Below, piece by piece: positions 6,638 to 47,867 of a DNA stretch of 49,656 nt. The DNA lies in contig LT649271.1 of assembly GCA_900128395.1 (NCBI GenBank), positions 1 through 49,656 of the forward strand, read 5' to 3'. The notes below the pieces were generated by a model. It was not told where the DNA came from. It did not search any database and saw nothing but the letters and a program-made list of their open reading frames with translations. Each line of letters starts with the position of its first letter. Position 1 is the stretch's first letter. Position numbers and translations under genes: made by a program. The stretch is from Stramenopiles sp. TOSAG23-2. Taxonomy: Eukaryota.

Positions 6638-8496
6638 TTAAAATTTAAACGGTGCTGGTTTCTTCGCCTCTTTTTTTATTGCATCCATAGGGCTCTTTTT
6701 TTTAGCACCAAAGACCGCACCTTTTTGACCTTGAGCCATTTCACTTCCAAAAGCCTCTTTACCTTGCTGTTTGATTTTCTTCACTCCATCTTCATTGTCC
6801 TTTATTTCACCACCATGTGTCAGTTTACCACTTGGCTTTAGATTTAACCGACTTTGCATCTCTCTATTATATTTATGATCTATACCATTTTCCATCCACC
6901 ATTTAAATGTATTACTAACGGCTGGCTCACTTGGCATAGCAAGTGAACCGCCCATCATTTCTTCAGGTGGCTCTGGATTAGGATTGCCTTCATTTCCTTT
7001 CTCTATTTTACCAACGTCGGTGGAAACAGCGTAACTTTCATTCTCCATTTTGTCTTGTAATATTTTTATATCTTGCTTGACACTTGTTAGGATTGCCTTC
7101 ATTTCCTTTCTCTATTTTACCAACGTCGGTGGAAACAGCGTAACTTTCATTCTCCATTTTGTCTTGTAATATTTTTATATCTTGCTTGACACTTGATATT
7201 GACTGAGCAGCAACTTCTGGTATCGATGGCTTTTCCGCTTCAATGCGCTGTGGTATCACTGGACTATCACTAGGATTCATATAGTTCAATTCTTTAACAT
7301 CATTTTGATTAGTAACTGCATGTAATTTTTTTTGTAAAACCTCGGACTCGGTTAATTTTTCAGGCTCTTTCGTTTTATTTTCATATCGTTCCTGATACTC
7401 GCGTGATTGAGCTATTTCCATGGCTTTCTCCGCCTTGCCAATATCTTCCGGTGCTTTAGTTAATTCAGCTCTACGTGCCAATTCTTTTGCATTTTCATAT
7501 AGATCATCGCTATTTTCAAGCTTAGTGCCATTTGGACCCAATAATGCACTGTTTCCTTTTTTTGCATTCATAGCCGATGTCCCATTCGCACCAGTTGCAT
7601 TCTTTTCATTCTCATTCTTAATAATACCATCCTCGTGTACATCATCCTCTCGTAATGCACTTGCATAGTATAGATAGAAAGAAAACAGAAAGAAACAAAA
7701 CAAGAAGAAAAAAAAGATGGGAACAGCGGCATCGTTAGTGTCGTCTGATGATAATAAACTTCCACATTTTGAAGATTTACCTGGTATATTACAAATATGT
7801 ATTGGTACTGATACAAAACCAGGTCTCATAGCATATTTTGATGATGATATACTTGCAATGATAAATATGTTTGCGAAAACATGTAAAAAATTTCTTGAAT
7901 ATGATCCCTTGCGTTGTTATTATTTTAGAGTTGTATTAATCATTCTTAATAATACCATCCTCGTGTACATCATCCTCTCGTAATGCACTTGCATGTTGTG
8001 GATCCTGCTCACGTTTATGTTTTTGTTCTTGTTCTGTTTTTTTAATCTGTTCCCTCGTGTGTCTTAATCGCAACATATCCGTTTCCGTGGCTTTAATAAC
8101 CTCTTCGGCTGTATCTTTATCAAATGGACGTTCAAATGGTAATTTATCTTCGCTTGTTACTTGTGAGTTATACAACGGTTTTACTCTATGATCTTCTAAA
8201 ACAGACAAATGTTTATTTGTAGGCGATGCTTCGCGAATTCCTAAAGGATTGCAATCACCATGTTCATTATTATTATTATTATCACTAGTATCGCAAGGAT
8301 TAGTCATAGCAATTTCATTACGATGAGCATTACTACTACTGCTTCTAAAACGATTATGTCTAAAGAATAAATTTTGATTTAATCTATTATTATTATTATT
8401 ATGTAATATATTATTATTATTCTGTTGAATATCTTTTCCATGTACATATAATAATATGACATTGATGACGATTACAATGATGATCATGATTTTCAT
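6638..8496 (-). CDS. Secreted charged protein of unknown function (~473 aa reconstructed), split by an insertion and a duplication
   Basis: Signal peptide at 8496; joining 8496-7940, 7611-7087 and 6977-6638 gives one uninterrupted 1422-nt frame. Confidence 0.7.
6978..7195. repeat. Exact 109-bp tandem duplication (6978-7086, 7087-7195)
   Basis: TTAGGATTGCC...GACACTTG repeated head to tail; frameshifts the host ORF. Confidence 0.9.
7612..7994. repeat. Exact 55-bp direct repeats (7612-7666, 7940-7994) flanking a 273-bp insert partly duplicated at ~8919-9049
   Basis: TCATTCTTAATAATACC...GCACTTGCAT identical at both sites; the insert encodes MGTAASLVSSDDNKLPHFEDLPGILQI, also present at 8970. Confidence 0.9.
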
Positions 8497-13827: not shown

Positions 13828-15295
13828 TTATAAAAGAACTTCTGAACTACCATTATTACTTTTACTACTACCTTCATGTCGCTTTTCCCAATTTACAATT
13901 TTATCTTTGTACTCGTCGATATTTCTAGCATTTAATTTAGTTAATTGTCTCCTAGTCAATGGTTGATTTGTAAAAGGGCATGTATTTGGACGATGTTTAA
14001 ATGGACCTGGATCATCTTCGTCATCTGCTCCGCCATATGACATCAATGTTTGCATCCAAGAATCGTAGGACATTACATGGCCATATATTGAGATAGCAGG
14101 GTCGTAACAAAAATCTTGTGTCATTGGATCGCGAAAGCCTGGCATGATATTTACCCAATTTTTTGGTCGCTCGATACGTTTTCTCTCTTTTACTGGTTTC
14201 TTTTTCTTCGCTCTTGGTTTCTTTGGTTTTTTCGGTATTGATAACCTTGGTTTCTTAGCTTTGCGGCCGCCACCACCACCAGTCCTTGGTTTTTGATGTT
14301 GCGCAGCGGCATAATCGCCCGTTACTTGCAATGATTGTGGGACTAACACTTTAGGTCGAGTAAATTTCAATTTCTTTTTTATTTTACCAGTTTTCTTATC
14401 TTCAACTTCTATCAATTGGTAGTTTGGATCTTTCAAAACGCCCTTTTCAATTAACAAGCGGTAGTAATTAGAACATTGGTAACCAACACGACCTGGAACC
14501 TTGATACTTAGCTCCCCCCAACGATAATCAACACCACCTTTAATTAAAGTTAAGAAATGGTTATGCTCCGCTTCTGACCATGCACCTGTTGCTTGAGTTT
14601 CACCTAAATCATTGAAACGGTAATAATATGCATTTGGGTTTTGTTTTCTATGCATGAATGCTTTGCACCTTGCTTTGCTCCAACCCATTGCGAGTAATTT
14701 TTTCGCCTGGTCTGTTTCTAAGCAATCATTCATATTCCCAGATTTAACAGATATTTTTTTTCTCTTCAGGATTTTTTGTGGCTTGTGCACTTCATCTTTT
14801 TTTGCAAAAGCTTCAACTGCACGTTTTGCATCTTCGAGTGATAAATCCTCTTCATCCCCATCATCCATGACATTGCGATATGCTTCTTCATCTCCTTCTT
14901 CTTTATCCTCTGGTGCCCAACAGGAAATTTTACCATCAGTTGGAACATGTGCGCCAAAATATCTTCTCGTTCGTTTGCCTACTAAATCGCTTCCTTCTAT
15001 TTGAAATCCTTCTGGAAGTTTCTTCGTCACCTTTTTTTTAGCAGATGATTTTGCTTTTTTCTTGGAAGGTGATGTTTTTTTCTTCGGTGTTGTTGCCGAT
15101 TTTTTGCTTTTTTTATTGCTTTTGCTCGTTGCTGGTATATCAAAATCGTTTAAATCGTCTGCATCCGCATTATCATTTAAACGTACAGTCGTTTTCTTAC
15201 TTTTGCCTTTTTTAGCCTTTACTTTTGATGGTGTTGGGGCATTTTTCTTCTTCTTCGTCGTCGTCGATTTTTTCTTTGCACTACTACTACTACTG

Positions 15296-15327
<32 letters not shown>

Positions 15328-16071
15328 GCTGCTGCTGCTACTAGAACTTTCATTTACACCATTTTCCTTATCATTTGTGTTATTACGCGTAAGCTCTTTC
15401 TCTTCACCTGTCTCATCAATTATACCTGCTTTCATAGCCATAGCCATAGCATCTCTTAAGACCAAACGTTTGCCACCACTTTTTGAACTTCCAGTATTTT
15501 GCTGCCTTGCACGTCTTAAATGGTCTTCCAAAGCGTCTGTTGAATTAATTTCAATAGCTGTTGTAATACCACGTGATCTCATCTTTGGACCTCTTGGTTT
15601 TCTTACACGATATTTACGTGCTGTCATTTCTTTAACCGCATCTGCAAATTCTGGATCTGTGACTAAGCGTGTTTTTGCATGGATTTCGTTACCAGCACAT
15701 ACATCCAATGCCATTTGCGCTTCTTGCTCTGTCAAGTGTGGTTCCACAACTTCTTGTATTTCCTTTAAGGTTTGCTTTGCTAAATCCTCTGAATGCTTTG
15801 CAAATTTTGCTTGCATTTCTTTAATCTTTTGCTTCATTAAACGTTTTTGTTCACTAGATAAACCATCTTCCTCTTCATCGCTTGATTCATCGGATGAAGA
15901 TGATGAGCCATCTGAATCAGAATCAGAATCAGATTCGGTATCCGTAGCTTGGCTATCTTTAGTTGTCGTTGTAGTCGTCGTAGTCGTCGTTGTTGTTGGT
16001 GGTGTCTCAACAAAATCATTATCATCATCGACTTCCATGGTTTGAACGTGTCCTTGTACAATTGTTGCCAT
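13828..16071 (-). CDS. Nuclear protein with UBA-like, Tudor-like, Myb/SANT and C-terminal U-box-like regions
   Basis: LVGKRTRRYFG...DDGDEEDL (Tudor-like); WSEAEH...WGELSIKVPGRVGYQCSNYYR (Myb); FRDPMTQD..DPAISIYGH...CPFTNQPL (U-box-like). Confidence 0.75.
15281..15343. repeat. (CTA/CTG)n microsatellite encoding poly-Ser
   Basis: Direct reading of the sequence. Confidence 0.9.
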
Positions 16072-20172: not shown

Positions 20173-22557
20173 ATGGCAACGGAATCCTGGAATAACATTA
20201 CAGAAGGTGTGACAAATCTTTCTGGAAAATTTTCAATAAATAATAATGGTTTGAAATGGGAGTCTAATGATTCAGAAGAACAACCAATTGAAATGGCATC
20301 GTCTGAATTGTCTGGGGCGCAAATTACATGGTTAAGTGCAAGACCAAAATGTCAGCTACGTGTATTGACAGCGTCTGGTTCTACCAAACGTTTCTATGGC
20401 TTCAGAGGCAACGATCGTGATAAAATTAAACAATTTTTTCCAAAAGATAATTTAACTTTCAACACGGAGGAACCTGCTATTAATGGACAAAATTTTGGCC
20501 ATTTAACTTGTACCGATAAAACCATCACGTTTGAAAACGAGGATAAAGTAGCGTTTGAAATGCCAGCAAAGGATATTTCCCAAGTCATTTACAAAGCACC
20601 AAATCAAATCGAAATACAAATTGAGGAATCAGGTGTAAGTCGTAATAAAGATGATGCACAACTTGTTCAACTAAATTTTTGGGTACCGACAGAAAATTTA
20701 GACGAAGAAGATGAGGCTGAAGGAGCAGATGAAACATCTACATGGGGTAGTCAATTGCAGGCAAAGATGATGGCTGAAGCGGACATTCAAAGTGCAACTG
20801 GTGATTTAGTCACACAATTTCCTGATACTGTTGGCACTTTCAAATCACCACGTGGTCGTTATTCCATTGAAATGTATCAAAAATTCTTTCGTTTATATGG
20901 TTCAACATATAATGATAAAATCAAATATGATGAAATTAGTGCATTGTTTTTGTTAAATCATCCAGATTACAAAGAACATAGTTTCGTCATTAGTTTGAAA
21001 GAGGGTAAAAATGTGATCCAAGGTAACCAACGTTATCAACATTTAGTCATGTCGATGAAAGCAGATAAAGAGTTAACTGCGGATATATTTTTAAATGAGG
21101 CAGAATGTATTAAACAATATGGTAAAGATTCCCACGGAGAAGCAGCGTTAAAACCACGTATGACAGGTGATTTGCATACCTTAGTAGCTACTATTTTTAA
21201 AGTATTAACGAAAAAGAAAGTATATGTATCTGGGAAATATAAAAATTTCAGAGGGGGCGATGCAATACATGCTACCATGAAGACTCACTCTGGCTTACTG
21301 TTTCCATTACAACGAAATTTATTGTTTATTCACAGACCGACAACTTTCATTCGTTATGGTGATATACAAAATGTTGAGTTTGAAAGGTATACAGGTAGTA
21401 AAGGTGCTTCGCATACATTTGATTTACGTATACGATGTCGTAGTGTTGGTGGTGAGCAACCGCGTGAATATTTCTTCAGTGGCATTGGACGTGATGAATA
21501 TACTAACTTGTTGACGTTTTTCATGGGTAAAAACGTTAATGTTGTCGGTGCACGTTACGCTGATCCGCACACAAAAAGTGGTCGAAGAACAAACCGAGTT
21601 AATTACGCTGGTCAAGATGGTGGTGTCTCCTCTTCGGAGGAGGATGCGGAAGCTGACGATGATGAGGAAGATGGTGATTTTAAAGTGGATGAACATTCTG
21701 AATCCTCATCTGCTGATTCAGATGATGAGATTGATGAGGAATCGGATGAAGATGGAGACGTAGATGACTCTGCATCTGATGAAGATGATGATATGAAAGG
21801 ACGTCAAAAGAAAGCAACCAAACGAAAACGCACCTCTAAAAAAGGTGGTAGCAGTAAGAAGAAGAAAAGAGTTAGTAAAAGCAAAGTGCCAATTGGTAGT
21901 AATGGTAAAAAAAAGAGAAAGAAAAAAGATCCAAACGCACCAAAAAGGCCATTATCAGCATATTTTATTTTTATGGGTAAAAAGCGTACTGAAGTTAAAG
22001 AACAAAATGCTGATTTGAGTACAGCTCAAGTTGCGAAAAAATTAGGAGCAATGTGGAAGACAATGACGCCAGAGGACAAAAAAGTATATGACGATGAAGC
22101 GGCAAAATTAAAAGCTGATTATCTTGTTGTCAAAGCTGAATATGATAAAAATAAACCCCCATCTGAATGGGAGACTGATGAATCGGATTCTGGTAAAAAA
22201 GGAAAAAAGAAAAGTCCATATCCAGATCCTCCAAAGCGGGGTTTATCTGCGTATATGTTCTACGTTGCAGACATGCGTAATTCTGTCAAAGAGGCCAATC
22301 CAAATTTAAGTTTTGGTGATTTGAGCAAGTTAATTGGTCAAAATTGGAAAAATTCTGGTGATGATGTTAAAACTAAATTTAATGCAAAAGCAGCAGAAGA
22401 TAAGAAACGATACGAGGTAGAAAGGAAGAAATGGGAAGGCGAAAAACGGTCTATCAAGGCACAACGATTGTTGGATGGTTTAACCGATAGTTCTGGTTCA
22501 GATCTTAGTGAGGATTCTAGTTCCTCAGAAAGTAGTGATGATGGTGCAAGTGATTGA
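20173..22557 (+). CDS. SSRP1: FACT complex subunit SSRP1/Pob3 with two HMG boxes
   Basis: GQNFG, PRGRYSIEMY, GLLFPL..LLFIHRP, VEFER, TFDL; acidic tract; KKDPNAPKRPLSAY and PPKRGLSAY HMG boxes. Confidence 0.93.
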   Translation: MATESWNNITEGVTNLSGKFSINNNGLKWESNDSEEQPIEMASSELSGAQITWLSARPKCQLRVLTASGSTKRFYGFRGNDRDKIKQFFPKDNLTFNTEEPAINGQNFGHLTCTDKTITFENEDKVAFEMPAKDISQVIYKAPNQIEIQIEESGVSRNKDDAQLVQLNFWVPTENLDEEDEAEGADETSTWGSQLQAKMMAEADIQSATGDLVTQFPDTVGTFKSPRGRYSIEMYQKFFRLYGSTYNDKIKYDEISALFLLNHPDYKEHSFVISLKEGKNVIQGNQRYQHLVMSMKADKELTADIFLNEAECIKQYGKDSHGEAALKPRMTGDLHTLVATIFKVLTKKKVYVSGKYKNFRGGDAIHATMKTHSGLLFPLQRNLLFIHRPTTFIRYGDIQNVEFERYTGSKGASHTFDLRIRCRSVGGEQPREYFFSGIGRDEYTNLLTFFMGKNVNVVGARYADPHTKSGRRTNRVNYAGQDGGVSSSEEDAEADDDEEDGDFKVDEHSESSSADSDDEIDEESDEDGDVDDSASDEDDDMKGRQKKATKRKRTSKKGGSSKKKKRVSKSKVPIGSNGKKKRKKKDPNAPKRPLSAYFIFMGKKRTEVKEQNADLSTAQVAKKLGAMWKTMTPEDKKVYDDEAAKLKADYLVVKAEYDKNKPPSEWETDESDSGKKGKKKSPYPDPPKRGLSAYMFYVADMRNSVKEANPNLSFGDLSKLIGQNWKNSGDDVKTKFNAKAAEDKKRYEVERKKWEGEKRSIKAQRLLDGLTDSSGSDLSEDSSSSESSDDGASD

Positions 22558-22970: not shown

Positions 22971-24636
22971 TTATTGTTTTTCGCAATAGTCTCTGATCCA
23001 TTCAGGTGTGACTGATTTTGGTCTTTCCAATGGCAATCCAAGTGCTCTGTCCCAGAACAATTGTGATAAACAACCCATAGTACGACTAACACCGAATAAT
23101 ACAGTGTAGTAATCCTGTTGAGTGAAACCGTAATGCCACAACAAACAACCACTATGGGAATCAACATTTGGCCATGGATTTGCTGCTTTACCATGCTCTT
23201 TTAAAACATCTGGTACTACCTCAAAGATAGTGCCAACAATTTTGAACAATTCATCATCTGGCATATGTTTCAATGCGAATTCACGTTGTGCAGAGTAACG
23301 TGGATCAGTTTTACGTAATACAGCATGGCCGTAACCTGGAATAACTTGACCACCATTCAATGTTTCCCATGCAAATTCTCTGATTGTATCGTGGTTCACT
23401 TCTAATCCTTTGGATTCAAAATGTGCTTGTACATCGATAATCCAATTAAGTACCTCTTGGTTTGCTAAGCCATGTAATGGTCCAGCTAAAGAATTCAAAC
23501 CACCAGCCATGGATAAATATGGATCAGCTAATGTACTTCCAACTAAATGTGCAGTATGTGCGCTAGCATTACCACCCTCATGATCTGTATGAATAGTTAA
23601 ATATAAACGCATTAATTCATCAAATTCTGGATTGTCGAAACCAAGCATACGGCAAAAGTTGGCGCTATAATCAAGGCTACTATCGTATGCTGCGACTTTG
23701 CCATCGTGGTATGTTTGGCGATAGATAATTGCAGCTATTTCTGGTAATTTTGCCATTAAATCCAATGAATCTTCTAGCGTAGCTTCCCAATAATCTGATT
23801 TGTGGACACCAGCATTATATGCGGCTTGAAATTTACTTTCCGTTTGACATGCCATAACACCCATGGATAATTGTGTCATTGGGTGCATACCTTTTGGCAA
23901 GGATATCATTAATGGTTCAACGTGTGCTGGTAATTTTGCACGTGCATGCAACTCCTCTGTCAAACCCTTTGTTTGTTCAGCAGTTGGTACGTCACCAGTT
24001 AACAATAACCATAATAAAGCTTCTGGAAGTGGTTCATCATCTTGTTTTCCTGAATATGTAGGTAATGTCTGTTGTAATTCTGGGATGGTAAAACCACGGA
24101 AACGGATACCTTCATCTGCATCTAGCAATGATGTCTCCCATACCATGCATTTAACGCCTCTTGCACCACCCAAAGTTTGTGCAACGGTGACATCACCTAA
24201 TGAAACATCTCCGTAATTCTTTTTTAAATCGTTCCAGTCGGCCCTTTTTTTATCAATTTGACCTGCTAGAGTATCTTTTAAAGTAGAAGCAAAACGGATG
24301 TTGCGTGGAGCAGCACGTATTGTGGACTATGTATATATTTTAAAAGGAGAAAATTATTGTTAGTACAATGCAATCGCATATATATATACATATATGTATG
24401 TATCGATAAAAATCAAATATATTTAAGATTCTGGTTGAATATGTTTTATATGTACAAGATTTGTGGGTGTACATATATATATTATATATATATATATATC
24501 GTTAACATTTTATCAAAAAGAGTAAAGAGTATGGAATATTTATATTAAAATGGTGGTTGGATAATTATATATATATAGTATGATAGTTGTTCGAGAATAA
24601 GTTTGAAATACTTACATTAGCGATTTTAGATAACAT
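22971..24636 (-). CDS. CS: Mitochondrial citrate synthase (exons 24636-24616 and 24326-22971)
   Basis: [55 protein letters not shown]; spliced N-terminus [21 protein letters not shown] is transit-peptide-like. Confidence 0.96.
24327..24615 (-). other. Spliceosomal intron of citrate synthase (289 bp, phase 0)
   Basis: GTAAGT donor at 24615, CATAG acceptor ending at 24327; splicing keeps the frame. Confidence 0.85.
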
Positions 24637-36031: not shown

Positions 36032-39000
36032 TCATTGCAATCCAAATCCACTTGCATTTTCAATTGCAACTAATAATAGTCGCTTTAATTTTAATTTACT
36101 ATCATACTCTGGCAAAAGTAATGTGTTGAAACAAGTTGCACTGGTTGGAAGTGACACTTTATCTGGCCCATTTCGTTGTATCTTAAATTTAGGCTCGAGA
36201 TTTTTTAAACCACCAATAGGTGCACGATCAGCACCAGTACAAAATCGTAAAAACTTTTTCTTTTGCTCAAAATCGAAATTATGTAAAACTTCCCATAGTT
36301 TCTTAATATATGGATGTTCTTTACTAAAACCACCTTCGTATGTAGAATGTTCCTCAAGTTGCTTAAAATCCAACTCTATCTCTCCTTCTACTAAGCCTTC
36401 TAATTCTTTTGGCGTAAATAAATGCAATGCCTTTCCATCAACAACTTTTAAGAATCCCGTTGCAAAATGTTCAAATTGATCTTTAATTGAATCATGTAAA
36501 ATAAATTGAACATATTTATCTATATACTCGTGTTTATTGTCGCTTGTCACAGATATATTCGCACCATTTTCAATTAAGTCATGTTTTACTTCAACGCCCA
36601 AATTTGTTTTGTATGTAACTTCAAAGCATAAACAAAAAATATCTTCAACATCGTCCCCATCGTAATCACGCAATTGTTTCAAACCATTGTATATAAATTT
36701 GTCAATTGTCTTTAAATCATGTAATGAAAAATCATCGAACCCTAATAATTTTTTATACACAATTTGAGGGAAATGCAAATCAAGTATAACACTGTTATAC
36801 ACTGCTAATCCTGCTAATAAACCAACTAAATAATAAACATCTTTTCCTTCTACTTCATTTAAATTTTCGTCTTCGCTATCGATTTTGCCAACACTGGTAA
36901 ACCAGAAACAGCTATCATCACCAACAACTTTCCAATGTCCGAAATTCGGATCAAATAGTTTCTCTGTCAATAAGGAAAAATATTCACGTTTCACACCACC
37001 TGCGTCAACACCATCTTCTCGATAGAATTTCACCTTCAATGGTTTGCGCAGATCTTCATCTCTTAACTTGCCCGCTATCGATATGCTATCTTCCATGATA
37101 TGGCTACGACGTATTTGTATTCCTAAAAACTTAGTTTCGAGTTGCATGTTTCTCATTGAACGCACCATTGCATTTTGCATTGCATCATGCATCCTCAAAT
37201 TAGATTCAACAAATAAAATTCGACGTTTAACATTTGGATTTAATAAAAAACTGTATTTACAAAACGTAAAAGTTGATCCATGCCCTTGTTCATCTGTAAC
37301 CCAAGACCAATAATCTTTTGCAAAATATTGATATGATAATTTTGCTGTAAAATCTGTATAAAATATATGATCTTCTATCATTGCACCATCATTAGCATCA
37401 TCTATTGAAGATTTAGCTTTATGTAAACATGATAAAAATTCAACAATGCCTAATGCCACACCGTCTTTGTCTACGGCACTTCGCCCTTGTATTTTCATCT
37501 CGTTGGAAAACAACCATACCAATTGTTTAATTTGTACTTCAACAATGTCCTTAGGGATATTTTGGATAAAACTCTCTGCTAACACTTTCAACGCTAATGG
37601 TTTCATTTTAACAAAAAGGTGGCAAATTTTCAAATATTGATTTGACCATTTATTGCCTACGGTTCTATTCATATACAATGGATTTAATAGCAATATAACT
37701 ATACAACGTACTTCCTGTAATTTATTTGCATTATTAATCACATCTTCAATGCGTAATAAGCCGTTGTGTGTAGCATTGTAAATAGTATTTTCGATTTCAA
37801 TGTTTTTGGAATATGTTTCATATAATTCTTTAATATCGCTATAATTTATGGTTGATTTTCTATTGATGAAACAAACATTCAAAGCAGCTGGATTTGAAAA
37901 TAATTCTAACATTTGCTGTATAGCTGCTTCAAAACTATTAGATCTACTGCAATTTCTTGCTACAATCCGAAAGTAGGACAAATTCAATGCCTGTACTAAT
38001 TTTCGTTTCGGTATCATTGAATCCGATCTTTTGGCTCTATTTACAGGTTTATTATTTGTTCTAGCATCAGTAGTATCGCCAGAAAATAAGCCCAATATGC
38101 TTTTCGCGCTATTTTGCGATGACGGGTGGCAAATGATGTACTTTTTGTCGCCTCCAGCTGCAATTTCTGCCACGTTGCCCTTAATTTTAAGTTTTCCATT
38201 ATCAACACCTAAACAATATACATTACCACTCTCTGTTGCAACAATTGATTCTTTATTGTTGCATGTTACATGCGTAAATTTTAATGTTGAATCGTTGCTG
38301 TCATTGCTTTTATCTAGTGCATCTAAATTTAACAATGTTGGTACTTTCAGACACTGTTGAAATTTTCCAACACTGTTTGATAATGCTAATTGAGAGTAAA
38401 TATTGCTGCCACATCCATATAGTTTGCCACGCTCCGTTACAAAACAAGAATGATAAGACCCGGCACTAACTACAACTACCTTATCAGCTAGCTTCTCCAA
38501 TTCCAATTTAAATCTTTTCAACAAGCATGGATACGATTTATAAGTTAAATTGGATAAACTATGTTCCTGAGTCAAACCCAACTGTCCATGTGAATTGCTT
38601 CCCCATGTAAAACAACCATTTTTCAATGTAGTAGCAACTACGTGATATTTACCGACATCAATATCAACAACTGCATACATTGTTAACCCAGATACATGTT
38701 CCATTTTAAAACGATTTCTACGTTTTTTATCTCCCAAACCCAATGCACCGCCATAATATTTACCTGCTGACCAAACTTGTCCTAAATTAGTCAATAAAAT
38801 AGTAAAATTATTGCCACATTTAATTTGTACAGGTTGTCCAGCATGTTGTTTTATCATAACTTTATACGGATGGTATATTTCATACGTATCATCCATTCCT
38901 TCATCTCCATCTTCTATCAAATCCTTTCTATTATTTTCTTTTCCATGAGCAAGTTGACCAAACTCATTTGATCCAAACGTTAAAACAACATTTGTAGTTG

Positions 39001-40543
39001 TCAATACTGCGGTGTGATTATATCCACAACTAACTTGGCTTATACGCACAGCGACTAATGATTCGATTAATGATGGCTTTGGCACATATAAAACTCGTTG
39101 TTCTTCTTCAATCATCCTATTCTCAACATCCTTTTGACTCCCATCGTCATTATTTATGGATGGGATAACAGGGCGTGGATAGATCTTTCCAAATTCATAT
39201 TTTTGTACATATATATAATCCTCGTCTAATGTTGCCGCATGGCGTCTGTTCTGGTACAATAACTTTAAATGATTACGTTGAAAGCCTTTTGCTGGATCAG
39301 CTCTGACTGCATGGCACATTCCAGACCATGCTAATTCAGGGACACTACCATTTGTTCGTTTTGCTAACAATTGCATTTCCTTCAGATTAATAAATCCATC
39401 TTTGTCTTCATCAGAACTATCAAATATCAAATCGATCACGTGTGCCTTATTTTTCAATATTATAGTATTTAATTGATGTTTAACACGCACCAATGACAAT
39501 TTTTCGTGTAATTCAAAAAATTGCTCAAATGTTAAACCCTCTTCCTCTGCTACATTTGCTAATTTACATAGCAGTTTATACTTCTCCATGTTACGATTAT
39601 TCATTTTTATAAGTAAGTCGACGCCTACATCAACACCATATAATGAATGCAACATATTCGCAAATCCATTGTAATCAATTTTATTGAGTTTTGATTTCGA
39701 TGTATATATGTTGAAGATTATATATGTATATAACTTCAACTCGTAATCCAATAATTCTTTTTTTCTTCCCCCAATACTTCTACTACTACTACTACTTTGA
39801 TCTGAATCTTTATCCATGCATAAACAATTCATAAAATTATCACCCCAACCATACAATTGACCAGAGCTAGTTAGAGCTACGGTGCGATCGCCAGTCGTTT
39901 CAATTTGAGTTATTGTCGATGGTAATAACATTTCATTGATGTGAGATGTATTACAATCATATTCATAGACAAGAATTTCTGTTTCAGAAGACTCTTTTGA
40001 TATTGGTGTATTACTAAAAAATTGCGATCGATTACCATCCCTTATATCGTTATCATTTATCCGTTCTTCCTCTGGAATTGTATCGATGTTTGTTTGATAA
40101 AATTCATCTAAAAACGTTTCTAATAATATTGAATCTTGTCGTGATATTGGCGGTGCTTGAACTTTACTTAAAAGATTTTTTGTTGAGGAATGTCCGATAT
40201 TAGGATTTGCAAATGTTCCAGAACTACTGATATTCTTATTATTATTAGCTTGAATAGTACTACCATTGTTGTTGCTGGTGTTGTTGTTGCGTTCTAATTT
40301 CGGTGATAGAAATGCATCCCTTCCTGATACATTGCTGCCAATATCATCGTCGCTTACAAAAAAATTGTCCAGCTCTTCATTTAAAAAACTGCTTTGTTGT
40401 CGTGCTAATAATCTTGGTGCTAATAAATTATTTTCCTCTAATGCTTCATTTAACGCATCATTTAAATGATCTTCTGTATTTCTTCGCGCAAGCAACCGTG
40501 GTGGCTGCAGGTCATTATCGTTGTTCGTGTTGTTGTTGTTCAT
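36032..40543 (-). CDS. HERC-type E3 ubiquitin ligase (RCC1 repeats + EF-hands + HECT)
   Basis: RCC1 repeats (VSCGYNHT, FGSNEFGQL, WGSNSHGQLG); HECT (LKVKFYREDGVDAGGVKREYF, LPTSATCFNTLLLPEY); likely ATG at 40543. Confidence 0.93.
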   Translation of the reverse strand: MNNNNTNNDNDLQPPRLLARRNTEDHLNDALNEALEENNLLAPRLLARQQSSFLNEELDNFFVSDDDIGSNVSGRDAFLSPKLERNNNTSNNNGSTIQANNNKNISSSGTFANPNIGHSSTKNLLSKVQAPPISRQDSILLETFLDEFYQTNIDTIPEEERINDNDIRDGNRSQFFSNTPISKESSETEILVYEYDCNTSHINEMLLPSTITQIETTGDRTVALTSSGQLYGWGDNFMNCLCMDKDSDQSSSSSRSIGGRKKELLDYELKLYTYIIFNIYTSKSKLNKIDYNGFANMLHSLYGVDVGVDLLIKMNNRNMEKYKLLCKLANVAEEEGLTFEQFFELHEKLSLVRVKHQLNTIILKNKAHVIDLIFDSSDEDKDGFINLKEMQLLAKRTNGSVPELAWSGMCHAVRADPAKGFQRNHLKLLYQNRRHAATLDEDYIYVQKYEFGKIYPRPVIPSINNDDGSQKDVENRMIEEEQRVLYVPKPSLIESLVAVRISQVSCGYNHTAVLTTTNVVLTFGSNEFGQLAHGKENNRKDLIEDGDEGMDDTYEIYHPYKVMIKQHAGQPVQIKCGNNFTILLTNLGQVWSAGKYYGGALGLGDKKRRNRFKMEHVSGLTMYAVVDIDVGKYHVVATTLKNGCFTWGSNSHGQLGLTQEHSLSNLTYKSYPCLLKRFKLELEKLADKVVVVSAGSYHSCFVTERGKLYGCGSNIYSQLALSNSVGKFQQCLKVPTLLNLDALDKSNDSNDSTLKFTHVTCNNKESIVATESGNVYCLGVDNGKLKIKGNVAEIAAGGDKKYIICHPSSQNSAKSILGLFSGDTTDARTNNKPVNRAKRSDSMIPKRKLVQALNLSYFRIVARNCSRSNSFEAAIQQMLELFSNPAALNVCFINRKSTINYSDIKELYETYSKNIEIENTIYNATHNGLLRIEDVINNANKLQEVRCIVILLLNPLYMNRTVGNKWSNQYLKICHLFVKMKPLALKVLAESFIQNIPKDIVEVQIKQLVWLFSNEMKIQGRSAVDKDGVALGIVEFLSCLHKAKSSIDDANDGAMIEDHIFYTDFTAKLSYQYFAKDYWSWVTDEQGHGSTFTFCKYSFLLNPNVKRRILFVESNLRMHDAMQNAMVRSMRNMQLETKFLGIQIRRSHIMEDSISIAGKLRDEDLRKPLKVKFYREDGVDAGGVKREYFSLLTEKLFDPNFGHWKVVGDDSCFWFTSVGKIDSEDENLNEVEGKDVYYLVGLLAGLAVYNSVILDLHFPQIVYKKLLGFDDFSLHDLKTIDKFIYNGLKQLRDYDGDDVEDIFCLCFEVTYKTNLGVEVKHDLIENGANISVTSDNKHEYIDKYVQFILHDSIKDQFEHFATGFLKVVDGKALHLFTPKELEGLVEGEIELDFKQLEEHSTYEGGFSKEHPYIKKLWEVLHNFDFEQKKKFLRFCTGADRAPIGGLKNLEPKFKIQRNGPDKVSLPTSATCFNTLLLPEYDSKLKLKRLLLVAIENASGFGLQ

Positions 40544-41120
40544 GTCTCTTTTGTACGGTTGTGTATATACATATATATATATCTCAGAATAAGCTGTTAT
40601 GTTTACAATATACGAAGGATTCATGTATTCAATATTAGTCAAAAAAAACCAACATTTGTGCATTTTAAAATTTATATATATACTTGTGCACCTAAAAATC
40701 ACAAAAAGCAAAAAAAATCAATTTTTCGGAAATGTCGTATCTGTAATATTACGAACAACATGTTTGAAGTCCTGGAAATGGAAAATCGGGCGGTAGAAAA
40801 TAGAAAAGAAGAAAAGCCTGGAAAGCACAAAAGAAGAAAAAATCGCTTCAACCACACAATTCATTTATGCAGTTGCTTGTAATACATGTAGCAACTTAAA
40901 CTACATTTATGTATTTATTTAATTAGAACAACAAATATAGAAATGTAAAACTATATATGCACATCATATCAACAAGATTGTCGTCTACAAAACAACCAGT
41001 AACATATATTATATTATATATGTATATATTAGTTTCTTGACATTATATTCATACCACTGTACATATTATATAGGTAGTTGAATAATTCAATCACGCAAAT
41101 ATACTATACAACTACAAAAA

Positions 41121-42979: not shown

Positions 42980-45900
42980 TTATGCATTACCAATTGAACT
43001 TCCCACAACATTAGATGTAAATTGTACGAATAAATTGTACGCATTTTGTTTTCCAATAACAGGAAGTACAATCATCTTCTTCGCCAAAGCTGATGAAATG
43101 CAAGGTAAAACTGTATTTTGTCGAGAAGCAGGATCCGCTACGGCCAATAATCGTTCCCAGCTTACCCTTATCAATCTCATAGTATCTACAAAATTACTCG
43201 TTGAGGTTATCTTCTTCTCCGTTCGTTGAAGATATATCTCAAATGCCATGTCAGATAATCGCTTTAATTTATACCGGTTCTTGTACCTTTCACAAATTTC
43301 GTCTGATTTATCAAAGAAATCTTTCACCGTTGAAATCTGTATTTTGGGAACAATCCGTTTTAAAATATTTGCCCAAGTACACCATTCAGTATTTTCTTTC
43401 ATTGCACTTTCCTGTAGGAATACATCTATTGACGATTCATCCATCATGCTCCCCCCTTTATTTTCACTTGAATTAATACCTCTAGCGATATGATTTGAAG
43501 CATTCAATTTCGTCGGCCTTGTTATTGTAAGGTTCGTAAGTGACCTAGAGCCCTCTTGAGGTTTTGGCCTAAGTGGCTTAAGTTTTTGTTTTTTATTTTT
43601 GGAAACAGCATTGGCGGTATTTGTGGTATCTGTATCGATATTTTCTCCATGTTGAGATACTTTTATCTGAGTATTATTGCTACCACCGATGAAATCATCG
43701 GAAGAACCATTTACTGTTTTTCGTTTTTTTTGGATGATCTTAATCCATTGTTTCTTCTTTTCCTCTTTATCAAAGCCATTGCAGTGTCCGTTGGAGTCTC
43801 CTTCATTATTGCGCTGCTGGATTTTTTCTCGATTTAGCGACGCTTTGGTAAAGTCCCTTGCCTTTTGTTTCAATTTTTCTTTTTCATATACTTCTTTGAC
43901 TTTTAAAAACTCATGAATTGTTGCAATTTTTTTTTCGGCCTGTTCCTGCGTTTGTTTTGCCTCCTGCTCGTTGTCCAGCTGTTTTACTTTTTCATTGTAT
44001 TCTGCAAGCTGTTCCCTGAATTTCTCAAGATATTTCTCTTTCTGGTTCTTTGGTATTTCGCATTTCCACATATGATACATTTTCCTTGTAATATCTCCAG
44101 ATTTTAAGTCTGGGAACTTAGCTGTCAGTAGTTTCCGCTGGTTCGTCAATCGTATCCAAGTATTCATTGCATTGACTGGCCTTTTTAGTTGAGGATAGCG
44201 AGGCTTTTTCCTTTTTCTCCTAACTGGTTTCTTCAATTTTTGTTTGTTACCAGCTACATTATTCTTATTTATCTTCTTTGATATATTTACATTGGTTATC
44301 GATGGAGAGCTACGATTCGTCCTATTCAAATATGGTTTCAAATTTCTTGGATTCACAATAATTGAAAATACACGGTCCTCTTTTTTTCGTGAATTTTGCT
44401 TTTGCTGCTGTAAACCATTTTTAAATGAATCGAATTTAAATGCCGTTTCTTGTCCAAGCAATAAATATGTTCTTTGAAAGCACTGTAGGGGTGAACGGAA
44501 ATCAAACAAACGTGCCACGTGAATCCATGAACCGGCTGTATTTTTTCCAATAAAACTTACAAGAGCCTCATCTTCTTCATTTGACCAATTTAGGGTATTT
44601 GCATTGCATTTACGTGTATATTCTGCAATATCTTCAGTAACGTCTGGCATATAATGTAATGTGTAGATGAATATAAGTGGTTAGAAGATAATCATCGAGA
44701 TATTAAAAGGTTTAGGTTAGGATAATTACTAAAACAAAGTTCTTCCCGTTGTGTACATTACTTACCATCTTTCAATGTAACACTTCTAATAAATGGAACC
44801 AACTGCTGCTCGGCATTTCTTTTTTTAATATGTCTTATTTTGAATCCTAATGCATCGGCGCGTTTAAATAATTGTTGATAAGGCTCATTAGGAAATTCTT
44901 TCTGGAGTTCTTCATAGGATATCACTGGTCGCGCTAAAAGAAGGAATAACTTAAAGTCATCTTCAGACAATGTTTTCACAGCGTCATGGAATATGAAGCT
45001 GGTATGACTTTTGATTACTGGAACTTGTACACGACGCTTTGATGCTAATGCCTGCTTTCTTTCAACTGCATGCCTAGTCATGAAGTCCACATGCAGTTTC
45101 AACATCATGCTATTGGATGTAGTATTATATTTTTTAAGTGTTTCTGTTTTTTCTTTTCGACCATGTTTTTTCTTCCTCACATTACCATTTGCTGATCTTT
45201 TTTTTACATACATAGTTGGCTTACTTGATGGTATTGCATACTGATTACCAAATCCAGGTATATTCAACACATCAAAATGGTATTCATCGGAGGGGCTATT
45301 CATTGCATTTATATCGTTCTTGCAAATTTTATCGCTACTTTGAGTGTTATTTGTACTAGCCATTCTTGTTGTTATTGCTGTTCCTGTTGTCATAGCTGTG
45401 TGCTTATTGTTCCTTTTTGTTAATGGTTTTGTAAACAAGTAAACATTATTTTCGTGATAATCATCATTACCATGAGTATTATTAAGAAGGATATTAATTT
45501 CCTCATCATCATTATTACTACTTTCGAACTTTTCCATCTCATATTCTTTTTGCTTTAAATTGTCTACTTTATCAAATTCAGATTCCGATTCAACATGTCC
45601 TTTGTTCACATCAATAATTTTAAATCTTGCTGGAAACATCGCTCCACCCCAGTTTAAATTTAAATTTTCAACTCTACGAAAGCATCTTATATTTCCATGT
45701 ACACTCCTAAAAAATATAGCATTTGAAAAGGCATTTTGCACATATATTTCAGGATAATATTCACGAAGCGTTCTACGTTTCGCGTCATCATGCGGTATTG
45801 TTATTGGCACGTTTATCATCTCGTTTGCATCCCATATATCCCATATGCATAAGCTATTTCTGTCCCTTCCACCTCCATTGTCTAAGTAATGGTCTCTTAA

Positions 45901-47277
45901 GCCAATCAAATAACTTGTTTTACTTTTAGTATCATGCATTATTTTACCACAATGAAAATGATTATACTGACCCAATTTTTTACTGAAAAATAGAACAGGC
46001 TTTTCATTTGGCTTATCTGGATTTATGAAATAAAAGCCAATATGACATGAAACGAAAATGCGGTTTTCGGATTGAAGCCATTGAAATTGAAAACCTAAAT
46101 TATTCAATCGAGTTTGAGACGCTACGGAAAGTTCATCTGGAAATGTAATTGCAACTGAATTAAATGCCGTTTTCTTCAAATTATAAATTAACATATGCTG
46201 GAACTTTGGTTGGCTTTTAAAGTGATCGTCACCGTTTCTTATAAAAAACGCAATATCTTGGTAATCATTAATATATATTGCTGATAAAGCTTGATACTCG
46301 TCTATCAATTCTTTGGCTTTTTTGCTTTTTAAATCAAATAAAATTATTTTTCGTTGTTCACTTACTATTATTTTATTAGTAGATAAAGAAGAATTATTTC
46401 CACCATTATCAAATACCATTTTGACTTCAATCTCTTTTTTTTTAGGTTTCTTATCATTGTTCTCGACTTCCAGATTTATCTTTTCATTATTATTATTATT
46501 ATTACTACCTTCCATATTCGTTGGCCAAACACTAATACGAGGAGTGTTGTTGTTGTTGTTGTTGTTGTTGCTGCTGCTGCTGCTGCTGCTTCCTTTCTTA
46601 ATAATTTTTCTAGCAGCACCGTTCGCTATGCGATTATTTTTATCAACACTGGGTGTGACAATTTTCTTATTGTGTCCAGCATTCTTCTTCTTCTTATAAT
46701 TATTATTATTATTACACTTGATTGTTATCAATAAATTATCTACATCTTTTGGGGAGCATACCAAGTCCACGATCATGAATCCATTATCTTTTTGAATAAT
46801 TTCGTGACTTGCTGGGTTTAAACTAGGTGAATTGATATCATAGCATAATACAACGCCATTCAGTGTTCCTGCGTATATATATTTCATATCAAAAGACCAA
46901 CACAAACAAGTTATAATTTTTGCAATTTTAGTATTACAAGTTAAATGTTTTATACATACTATACGACCAGTATAGATTTCAAAAATACGTATGATGGTAT
47001 CAGTAGCCGAACTACTTTCATTGTTTCTATTTGACGATTTTCTTTCACTTTTACTCTTTTTTCTCATTCCATTTTTTGACCCTCTAACTTTGCCATAACT
47101 TTCATCATCATCATCTTTTATCGTCAAATCATACCCGACAGCTAAGTATCTTTCGTCTTGTGATAACGCCATTGCATTAATATGTAAACGTCGCCCTTCG
47201 GTGTCTATACCCCCCAATATCCATTTATATTCATGGAGAACCGTAGATAAAACGGCTTGTCCGTCGCCTCTTTCCAT
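42980..47277 (-). CDS. RBBP5/Swd1-like WD40 protein fused to Myb/SANT and HMG-box domains (exons 47277-44766 and 44643-42980; ~1391 aa)
   Basis: WD40 repeats; WGGAMFPARFKIIDVNKGHVESESEFD resembles RBBP5 WSAFAPDFKELDENVEYEERESEFD; Myb WSNEEDEAL..W..VA..RSPLQCFQR; HMG KRPVNA..MW..QKEKY; in-frame intron. Confidence 0.75.
44644..44765 (-). other. Spliceosomal intron (122 bp, phase 1)
   Basis: GATG|GTAAGT donor, CTAAC branch-like site ~35 nt from the 3' end, GCCAG|AC acceptor; G+AC restores Asp in frame. Confidence 0.8.
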
Positions 47278-47740: not shown

Positions 47741-47867
47741 NNNNNNNNNNNNNNNNNNNNNNNNNNNNNNNNNNNNNNNNNNNNNNNNNNNNNNNNNNNN
47801 NNNNNNNNNNNNNNNNNNNNNNNNNNNNNNNNNNNNNNNNNNNNNNNNNNNNNNNNNNNNNNNNNNN
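47741..47867. other. Assembly gap (N run)
   Basis: Run of N characters. Confidence 1.

Follow-up and report, generated by a model that had tools for sequence, protein, structure and literature searches.

The question raised by positions 42,980 to 47,277 of contig LT649271.1 from Stramenopiles sp. TOSAG23-2 is whether two open reading frames (ORFs) that follow one another on the reverse strand are two genes or two exons of one. The upstream frame, ORF1, resembles RBBP5/Swd1, a core subunit of COMPASS-type histone H3 lysine 4 (H3K4) methyltransferases; the downstream frame, ORF2, contains a Myb/SANT repeat and an HMG box. A preliminary description of the stretch had claimed that a 122-nucleotide (nt) GT-AG intron with a CTAAC motif separates the two frames and that its removal leaves one frame of 4176 nt. 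We lean towards the same reading, i.e., one fused gene in which a divergent RBBP5/Swd1 orthologue is continued, via this intron, by the Myb/SANT repeat and the HMG box. The divergent marine RBBP5-like family to which ORF1 belongs, with its enlarged and folded tail, does not depend on the fusion. The window is the whole stretch of DNA that was analyzed, positions 1 to 49,656 of the contig; the public runs that contain it are marine or seawater metagenomes and metatranscriptomes.

ORF1 ends with GAT GGT AAG TAA, and ORF2 starts with ATG CCA GAC (the coordinates of all features are collected in Table 1). The putative intron begins with GTAAGTAA, within which lies the in-frame stop codon TAA, and ends with TGCCAG. 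When it is removed, 2512 nt of exon 1 and 1664 nt of exon 2 form a single frame of 1391 amino acids (aa) that has no internal stops and whose junction falls in a split codon, G/AC, between ..TLKD and VTED... The two ORFs, the intron signals and the joined frame were in this way reproduced from the sequence. CTAAC occurs at intron offsets 45 and 81, and the terminal AG is the only AG downstream of either motif, so the first AG available gives the in-frame join. A GT donor, a branch motif, an AG acceptor and a frame that is open after removal, all that is expected of a spliceosomal intron, are present, and the evidence that the sequence provides for an intron is strong.

GTAAGT and CTAAC are uncommon words in the window (21 and 40 occurrences, respectively). 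Counting both strands of the window (99,312 nt), the ordered pattern GTAAGT..CTAAC..AG was found four times; the site under study is one of these, and the 5′ intron of the citrate synthase gene another. In a looser scan, GTAAGT and CTAAC coincided with an ORF boundary only at these two places. Rough arithmetic from the counts of the pattern, of GTAAGT and of CTAAC in the window puts the probability that such a pattern would bridge the end of ORF1 and the start of ORF2 in frame by chance at about 1e-5. The citrate synthase intron (24615..24327, reverse strand) is 289 nt long, has the structure GTAAGT...TACTAAC...32 nt...AG and ends exactly where the long frame opens. Since it carries them, GTAAGT, CTAAC and AG appear to be used as splice signals in this genome, which looks intron-poor with yeast-like signals, because the citrate synthase intron is the only other clear one among about 20 long ORFs. 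The first exon of the citrate synthase gene is only 7 codons long (MLSKIAN), exon and intron together covering 24327-24636 of the reverse strand.

The intron signals are invariant in four metagenome contigs and in an RNA contig from run X1, variants being placed elsewhere in the intron. All nine full-length strain variants of ORF1 (9/9) end with ..SVTLKDGK, and the donor is therefore conserved. Between strains, the intron shows 0-2 changes over its 122 nt and the exons differ by 0.4-2.8%, which is too low for an intron to be distinguished from a spacer on this basis. An Rfam search in and around the putative intron matched no family.

The best-surviving alternative, which we consider possible but doubtful, is that ORF1 and ORF2 are independent neighbors, an 839-aa RBBP5-like protein and a 556-aa Myb/SANT-HMG transcription factor initiated at the ATG at 44650, in which case the GT..AG signals would have arisen by chance or be left over from an intron since lost. 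Chance would have to provide a consensus donor, a branch motif and a first-AG in-frame acceptor at once, the case to which the low figure given above applies. In addition, the ATG of ORF2 has T at position -3, the only pyrimidine among 16 starts in the window; the other 15 ORFs have A (14/15) or G (1/15). The distance between the frames is ambiguous. The ORF1-ORF2 spacer is 107 nt, and three other same-strand spacers in the window are 282, 343 and 627 nt, but one more same-strand pair is separated by 106 nt without intron signals (neither GTAAGT nor CTAAC), and a short spacer therefore proves little. That pair, 7041-7829 and 7936-8496 (both reverse strand; 263 and 186 aa, without a Pfam family), may consist of very tightly packed genes or of wrongly split ones.

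The RNA and protein records are where the evidence runs against a fusion. Spliced reads across 44766^44643 had been proposed as the test of the intron; we examined assembled metatranscriptome contigs rather than raw reads, and found no such joint, or any spliced form, in four RNA runs. Only run X1 covers the junction, with a contig of 1796 nt (44297-46092, depth about 8) that retains the intron without a gap; runs X3, X4 and X11 leave the junction uncovered. The sole RNA contig over the site being unspliced is what two genes would produce, yet the same contig bridges ORF1 and ORF2 unbroken, and DNA carry-over, pre-mRNA or true retention may all account for it. Likewise, the oligo-dT run X4 covers ORF2 (43096-44576) and nothing unique of ORF1, as would be the case for separate messages, but this coverage also fits the 3′ bias of oligo-dT priming. 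Differences in depth between ORF1 and ORF2 were not used, as contig depth cannot rank the parts of a gene. The only RNA joint listed (46352>46675) was set aside; it lies in low-complexity sequence and has a 21-letter side.

No protein joining both ORFs, and no fused orthologue, was found in the databases searched, where all proteins correspond to the two separate frames. A search with the ORF1 protein (461-1469 aa) returned one 846-aa form and no fusion, and a search with the ORF2 protein (305-973 aa) returned 21 matches, the longest of 576 aa, all with the same starting methionine. These 21 strain variants of ORF2 are 85-100% identical and begin with MPDVTEDI. Separate entries are again what two genes would yield, but gene calling on a metagenome contig has no means of joining exons. 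A search with an exact 26-nt pattern taken from the end of exon 1 retrieved four metagenome contigs of the same species, all of which keep the intron; since they are probably DNA, they are uninformative on splicing.

More distant relatives also bear on the point. When 1.84 billion representatives were searched exhaustively with HMMER, 11 matches were obtained, namely 8 relatives or fragments and 3 generic multi-WD40 proteins; the ORF1 relatives included P0002, P0004 and P0009 (59%, 37% and 26% identity, respectively). Cluster look-ups provided the fuller relatives P0040 (793 aa) and P0035 (683 aa). Both stop at about the end of ORF1, which is in line with two genes and also fits a natural C-terminus; that ORF1 itself ends just after a complete folded domain is likewise in line with two genes. 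In P0040 and P0041, from the species at 37% identity, the sequence ..K-G-K-Y/C.. stands at the aligned place, with a stop 18 codons later; at the protein level this is what translation through G/GTAAGT would give, and it speaks for the intron. A metagenome pattern scan with one alignment produced 600 pattern matches with no relative among them, scans of genome contigs and viral contigs with another gave no match, and a word-based protein search with the family alignment gave near-identical fragments only. On a 71,587-nt contig, the orthologue of a related species is split into pieces of 487 aa and 265 aa (P0004 and P0043) with frame-shifted ends, while its counterpart P0040 is a single 793-aa frame on a 2986-nt contig; indel errors in the longer contig are a more probable cause of the split than introns. 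Taken together, we consider it rather probable that a spliced, fused message exists: the part of the fusion claim that concerns intron signals and the open frame has held, and the part that called for splicing in RNA, or for a fused protein, has found no counterpart in these data.

ORF1 itself very probably encodes a divergent RBBP5/Swd1 relative, as the preliminary description had proposed. Its model is a full propeller, though Pfam detects one WD40 repeat. In the structure comparison of exon 1 with RBBP5, performed with VIA-align, RBBP5/Swd1 chains occupied ranks 1-14 among 965 aligned, at a propeller identity of about 12%. Several observations call for caution in this assignment. The mean pLDDT (predicted local distance difference test score) of the propeller model is 47.6, and the VIA-align Z margin over unrelated propellers is at most 1.6. 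The single Pfam WD40 repeat (aa 108-147) scores 27 bits, equal to the cut-off. A single-sequence search of the PDB with ORF1 detected no RBBP5 at E ≤ 1 and nothing below E 0.049. Foldseek could not tell WD40 proteins apart when given the propeller, and the atlas neighbors of ORF1 are WDR75-like, generic WD40 or unnamed clusters, with low recognition. For the distant relative P0009, a plant “RBL” cluster appears at atlas rank 10. RBL, for RbBP5-LIKE, is the plant name of the RBBP5 counterpart.

The assignment is strengthened by the region that follows the propeller. A profile of five family members matched yeast SWD1 in the PDB (6ven_M, 1.5e-4; 6bx3_B, 1.8e-4) and human RBBP5 (6kiu_N, 7.4e-4; 5ov3_A, 1.7e-3). 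Its best stretch was the post-propeller segment and not a WD repeat, aligned to residues 354-391 of SWD1 and 331-377 of RBBP5. When an 83-column profile of the post-propeller region was used, eight matches were obtained at E ≤ 10, of which SWD1/RBBP5 made up six (6/8; E 0.022-0.11). The alignment falls on residues 331-377 of RBBP5, and the six include the 27-aa RBBP5 peptide 5f6k_D (E 0.024), which was crystallized in MLL-ASH2L complexes. The segment at ~45562-45651, previously likened to the RBBP5 activation/ASH2L-binding motif, is recovered by this profile match, at 45571-45651. The HMMER alignment continues from ..EEINV onto RBBP5 ..EEVDV (residues up to 377). DDEEINI is a candidate WDR5-binding motif: it aligns to EEVDV, and E-I-N is invariant in three species, but N stands where the human motif has D. 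In Han 2019 (PMC6821195), the RBBP5 motifs that contact SET, ASH2L and WDR5 are placed at residues 330-381, directly after the propeller.

That the WD40 part is instead some other propeller protein (WDHD1/AND-1-like, with WD40 and HMG, or of a lineage-specific family) with a convergent likeness to RBBP5 motifs would agree with the generic Pfam WD40 matches (WD40_WDHD1_1st is weak, 18.2 bits against a cut-off of 109.9), with the WDR75-like or unnamed atlas neighbors, with the modest SWD1/RBBP5 E-values (1.5e-4 to 0.11) and with WDHD1/AND-1/Ctf4 architecture, in which an N-terminal propeller and a far-downstream HMG box share one polypeptide, but it is improbable in view of the 14 top-ranking folds, of the matches of the post-propeller-only profile at the homologous position, of the plant cluster at rank 10 and of the fact that Pfam finds no Mcl1/SepB middle domain (E ≤ 1) in either ORF. 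As an RBBP5/Swd1 relative, the ORF1 protein may belong to a COMPASS-like complex.

Past the propeller, exon 1 has a tail of about 240 aa. It closes with what looks like a winged helix, and the exon ends just after this complete folded domain.

The two domains of ORF2, predicted before at ~44470-44587 (Myb/SANT) and ~43990-44195 (HMG), both exceed their Pfam cut-offs; overall, the motif and domain coordinates of the preliminary description are correct to within a few bases, as judged by Pfam and motif positions. A second Myb family, PF00249, scores 19.6 on the Myb region, under its cut-off of 24.4. In PDB sequence searches, the Myb part matched SNAPC4 (1.4e-3) and c-Myb (2.7e-3). The HMG box aligned best to SOX-5, SOX-9, SRY and SOX-17, with SOX-5 at the top (3.8e-4), and SOX/SRY proteins accounted for 14/29 among the matches listed. 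Unlike factors of the SOX/SRY/MATA type, to which it is related by E-values of 3.8e-4 and weaker, the predicted box adjoins a Myb/SANT repeat and possibly stands behind an RBBP5-like protein. For the C-terminal region (aa 401-556), no Pfam or PDB sequence match was found. In a set of 19 full-length variants, variation is lowest in the Myb part (3/70 positions) and highest in the C-terminal part (31/156). The exon 2 domains may bind DNA. In some strains, about 29 residues (NRTNRSSPSITNVNISKKINKNN...) that lie between the Myb repeat and the HMG box (44242-44327, reverse strand) are duplicated in tandem and in frame; the duplication appears in a 576-aa variant (P0026), at a join of contig L004 and at a back-joint of run X4.

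If the locus is a single gene of an uncultured marine eukaryote, the following picture emerges. Exon 1 would encode a propeller of seven blades that contains a large low-complexity insert, followed by the motifs that in RBBP5 contact SET, ASH2L and WDR5, and by a long tail ending in the winged-helix-like domain. The phase-1 intron would join exon 1 to exon 2 in at least part of the transcripts, and exon 2 would contribute the Myb/SANT repeat and a SOX-type HMG box to a protein of 1391 aa. Like RBBP5, the propeller and the motif region may serve as the scaffold for a core H3K4 methyltransferase of the SET1/MLL type. The enlarged C-terminal tail (winged-helix-like, Myb/SANT and HMG) may supply contacts with DNA and chromatin or with the nucleosome, which could anchor or direct the complex with no need of a separate recruiter.

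Because the stop codon lies within the donor, retention of the intron would yield a complete short form. One can therefore imagine the intron as a switch between an 839-aa untargeted scaffold, made when it is retained, and a 1391-aa DNA-tethered H3K4 methyltransferase core, made when it is spliced; we regard this as an unlikely, speculative extension of the fused-gene reading. In such a scheme, the unspliced X1 contig would be the message of the short form, and the G-K-Y/C read-through tail of P0040/P0041 would be the trace of this intron in a different marine lineage.

Target finding by SET1/MLL complexes is usually attributed to accessory subunits and transcription factors, and RBBP5 is viewed as a scaffold. 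DNA-binding modules are known on other COMPASS/MLL subunits, such as the winged helix of ASH2L, CFP1/Spp1, and the CXXC domain and AT hooks of MLL. The predicted fusion would resemble them in that a subunit of an H3K4 methyltransferase bears its own contact with DNA or chromatin; it would differ in that the modules, a Myb/SANT repeat and a SOX-type HMG box, would be on the RBBP5 subunit.

With RBBP5 and Swd1 (Cps50 of fungi), the protein shares the N-terminal seven-bladed propeller, for which RBBP5/Swd1 structures are the best match, and the short acidic region right after it that aligns to the activation segment and the ASH2L and WDR5 motifs. As in the family described in PMC6821195, a variable C-terminal tail comes last. 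The differences are the low propeller identity, a 140-residue low-complexity insert, the winged-helix-like fold in the long exon 1 tail, the D to N change in the WDR5 motif and, if the message is spliced, 553 further aa with Myb/SANT and HMG. According to the same source, the distal tail of known RBBP5/Swd1 proteins varies strongly, with 25 aa in yeast against 158 aa in human (PMC6821195), and the family is described there as a propeller plus variable tail with no DNA-binding domains (PMC6821195). This supports, to the extent of these published descriptions, the earlier statement that animal and yeast RBBP5/Swd1 lack such domains. A literature search over a limited collection also found no RBBP5/Swd1 with HMG or Myb domains. 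According to two published reports, human RBBP5 contacts both nucleosomal DNA and the H4 tail through its propeller (PMC6895043), and a motif in the vertebrate RBBP5 tail helps nucleosome recognition (PMC6821195). Given these roles of the RBBP5 propeller and tail, the fusion would extend a known trend rather than introduce a new principle.

An RBBP5 protein with a winged-helix-like domain, and perhaps with Myb/SANT and HMG, would mean that the tail can hold full DNA-binding modules, and would provide a natural setting in which direct tethering of the catalytic core could be tested. The analysis also brings to light, in abundant marine protists that are uncultured, an RBBP5 family that ordinary sequence searches miss.

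Table 1. Features of the ORF1-ORF2 locus (positions in the window)
Feature	Position	Strand	Remarks
ORF1 / exon 1, RBBP5/Swd1-like	exon 44766..47277; unspliced ORF 44758..47277	-	839 aa; stop 44758-44760
WD40 beta-propeller	45646..47244	-	ORF1 aa 12-544
Low-complexity N/S/K-rich insert inside the propeller	46288-46713	-	ORF1 aa 189-330
Post-propeller segment WGGAMFPARFKIIDVNKGHVESESEFD (WGGAMFPARF..ESESEFD)	45571..45651	-	resembles RBBP5 activation segment and ASH2L-binding motif
DDEEINI, candidate WDR5-binding motif	45490..45510	-	aligned to RBBP5 ..EDEEVDV
Winged-helix-like domain, end of exon 1	44782..44973	-	ORF1 aa 769-832; conserved in P0040 and P0035
Putative spliceosomal intron, phase 1	44644..44765	-	122 nt; GTAAGT donor, two CTAAC branch motifs, CAG acceptor
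ORF2 / exon 2	exon 42980..44643; stand-alone ORF 42980..44650	-	556 aa; ATG at 44650
Myb/SANT repeat (PF13921, Myb_DNA-bind_6)	44471..44587	-	ORF2 aa 22-60; 26.5 bits, cut-off 22.9
HMG box (PF00505), SOX/SRY-like type KRPVNAMNTW...	43979..44185	-	ORF2 aa 156-224; 29.3 bits, cut-off 25.4
C-terminal region of exon 2	42983..43450	-	ORF2 aa 401-556

The window has a G+C content of about 31% and is gene-dense, with mostly single long ORFs. Neighbors of the locus include genes for an ankyrin protein, a PRMT, an MFS transporter, SSRP1, citrate synthase, a Kelch protein, a HECT-RCC1 ligase and glucosamine-6-phosphate deaminase. An assembly gap of 127 N (47741-47867) lies in the spacer from which ORF1 and the glucosamine-6-phosphate deaminase gene diverge, and the promoter region of ORF1 is therefore incomplete. 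Start codons in the window have a strong A at position -3 (14/15, the rest G), a context useful for calling true starts. A 747-aa protein (13831-16071, reverse strand) has a weak Myb repeat (20.4 bits, under the cut-off). The frame at 36035-40711 (reverse strand) encodes a HECT ligase of 1559 aa that also has an RCC1-like domain. The SSRP1/Pob3-type subunit of FACT (20173-22557, forward strand) carries two C-terminal HMG-box stretches (Pfam HMG_box, 135 bits).

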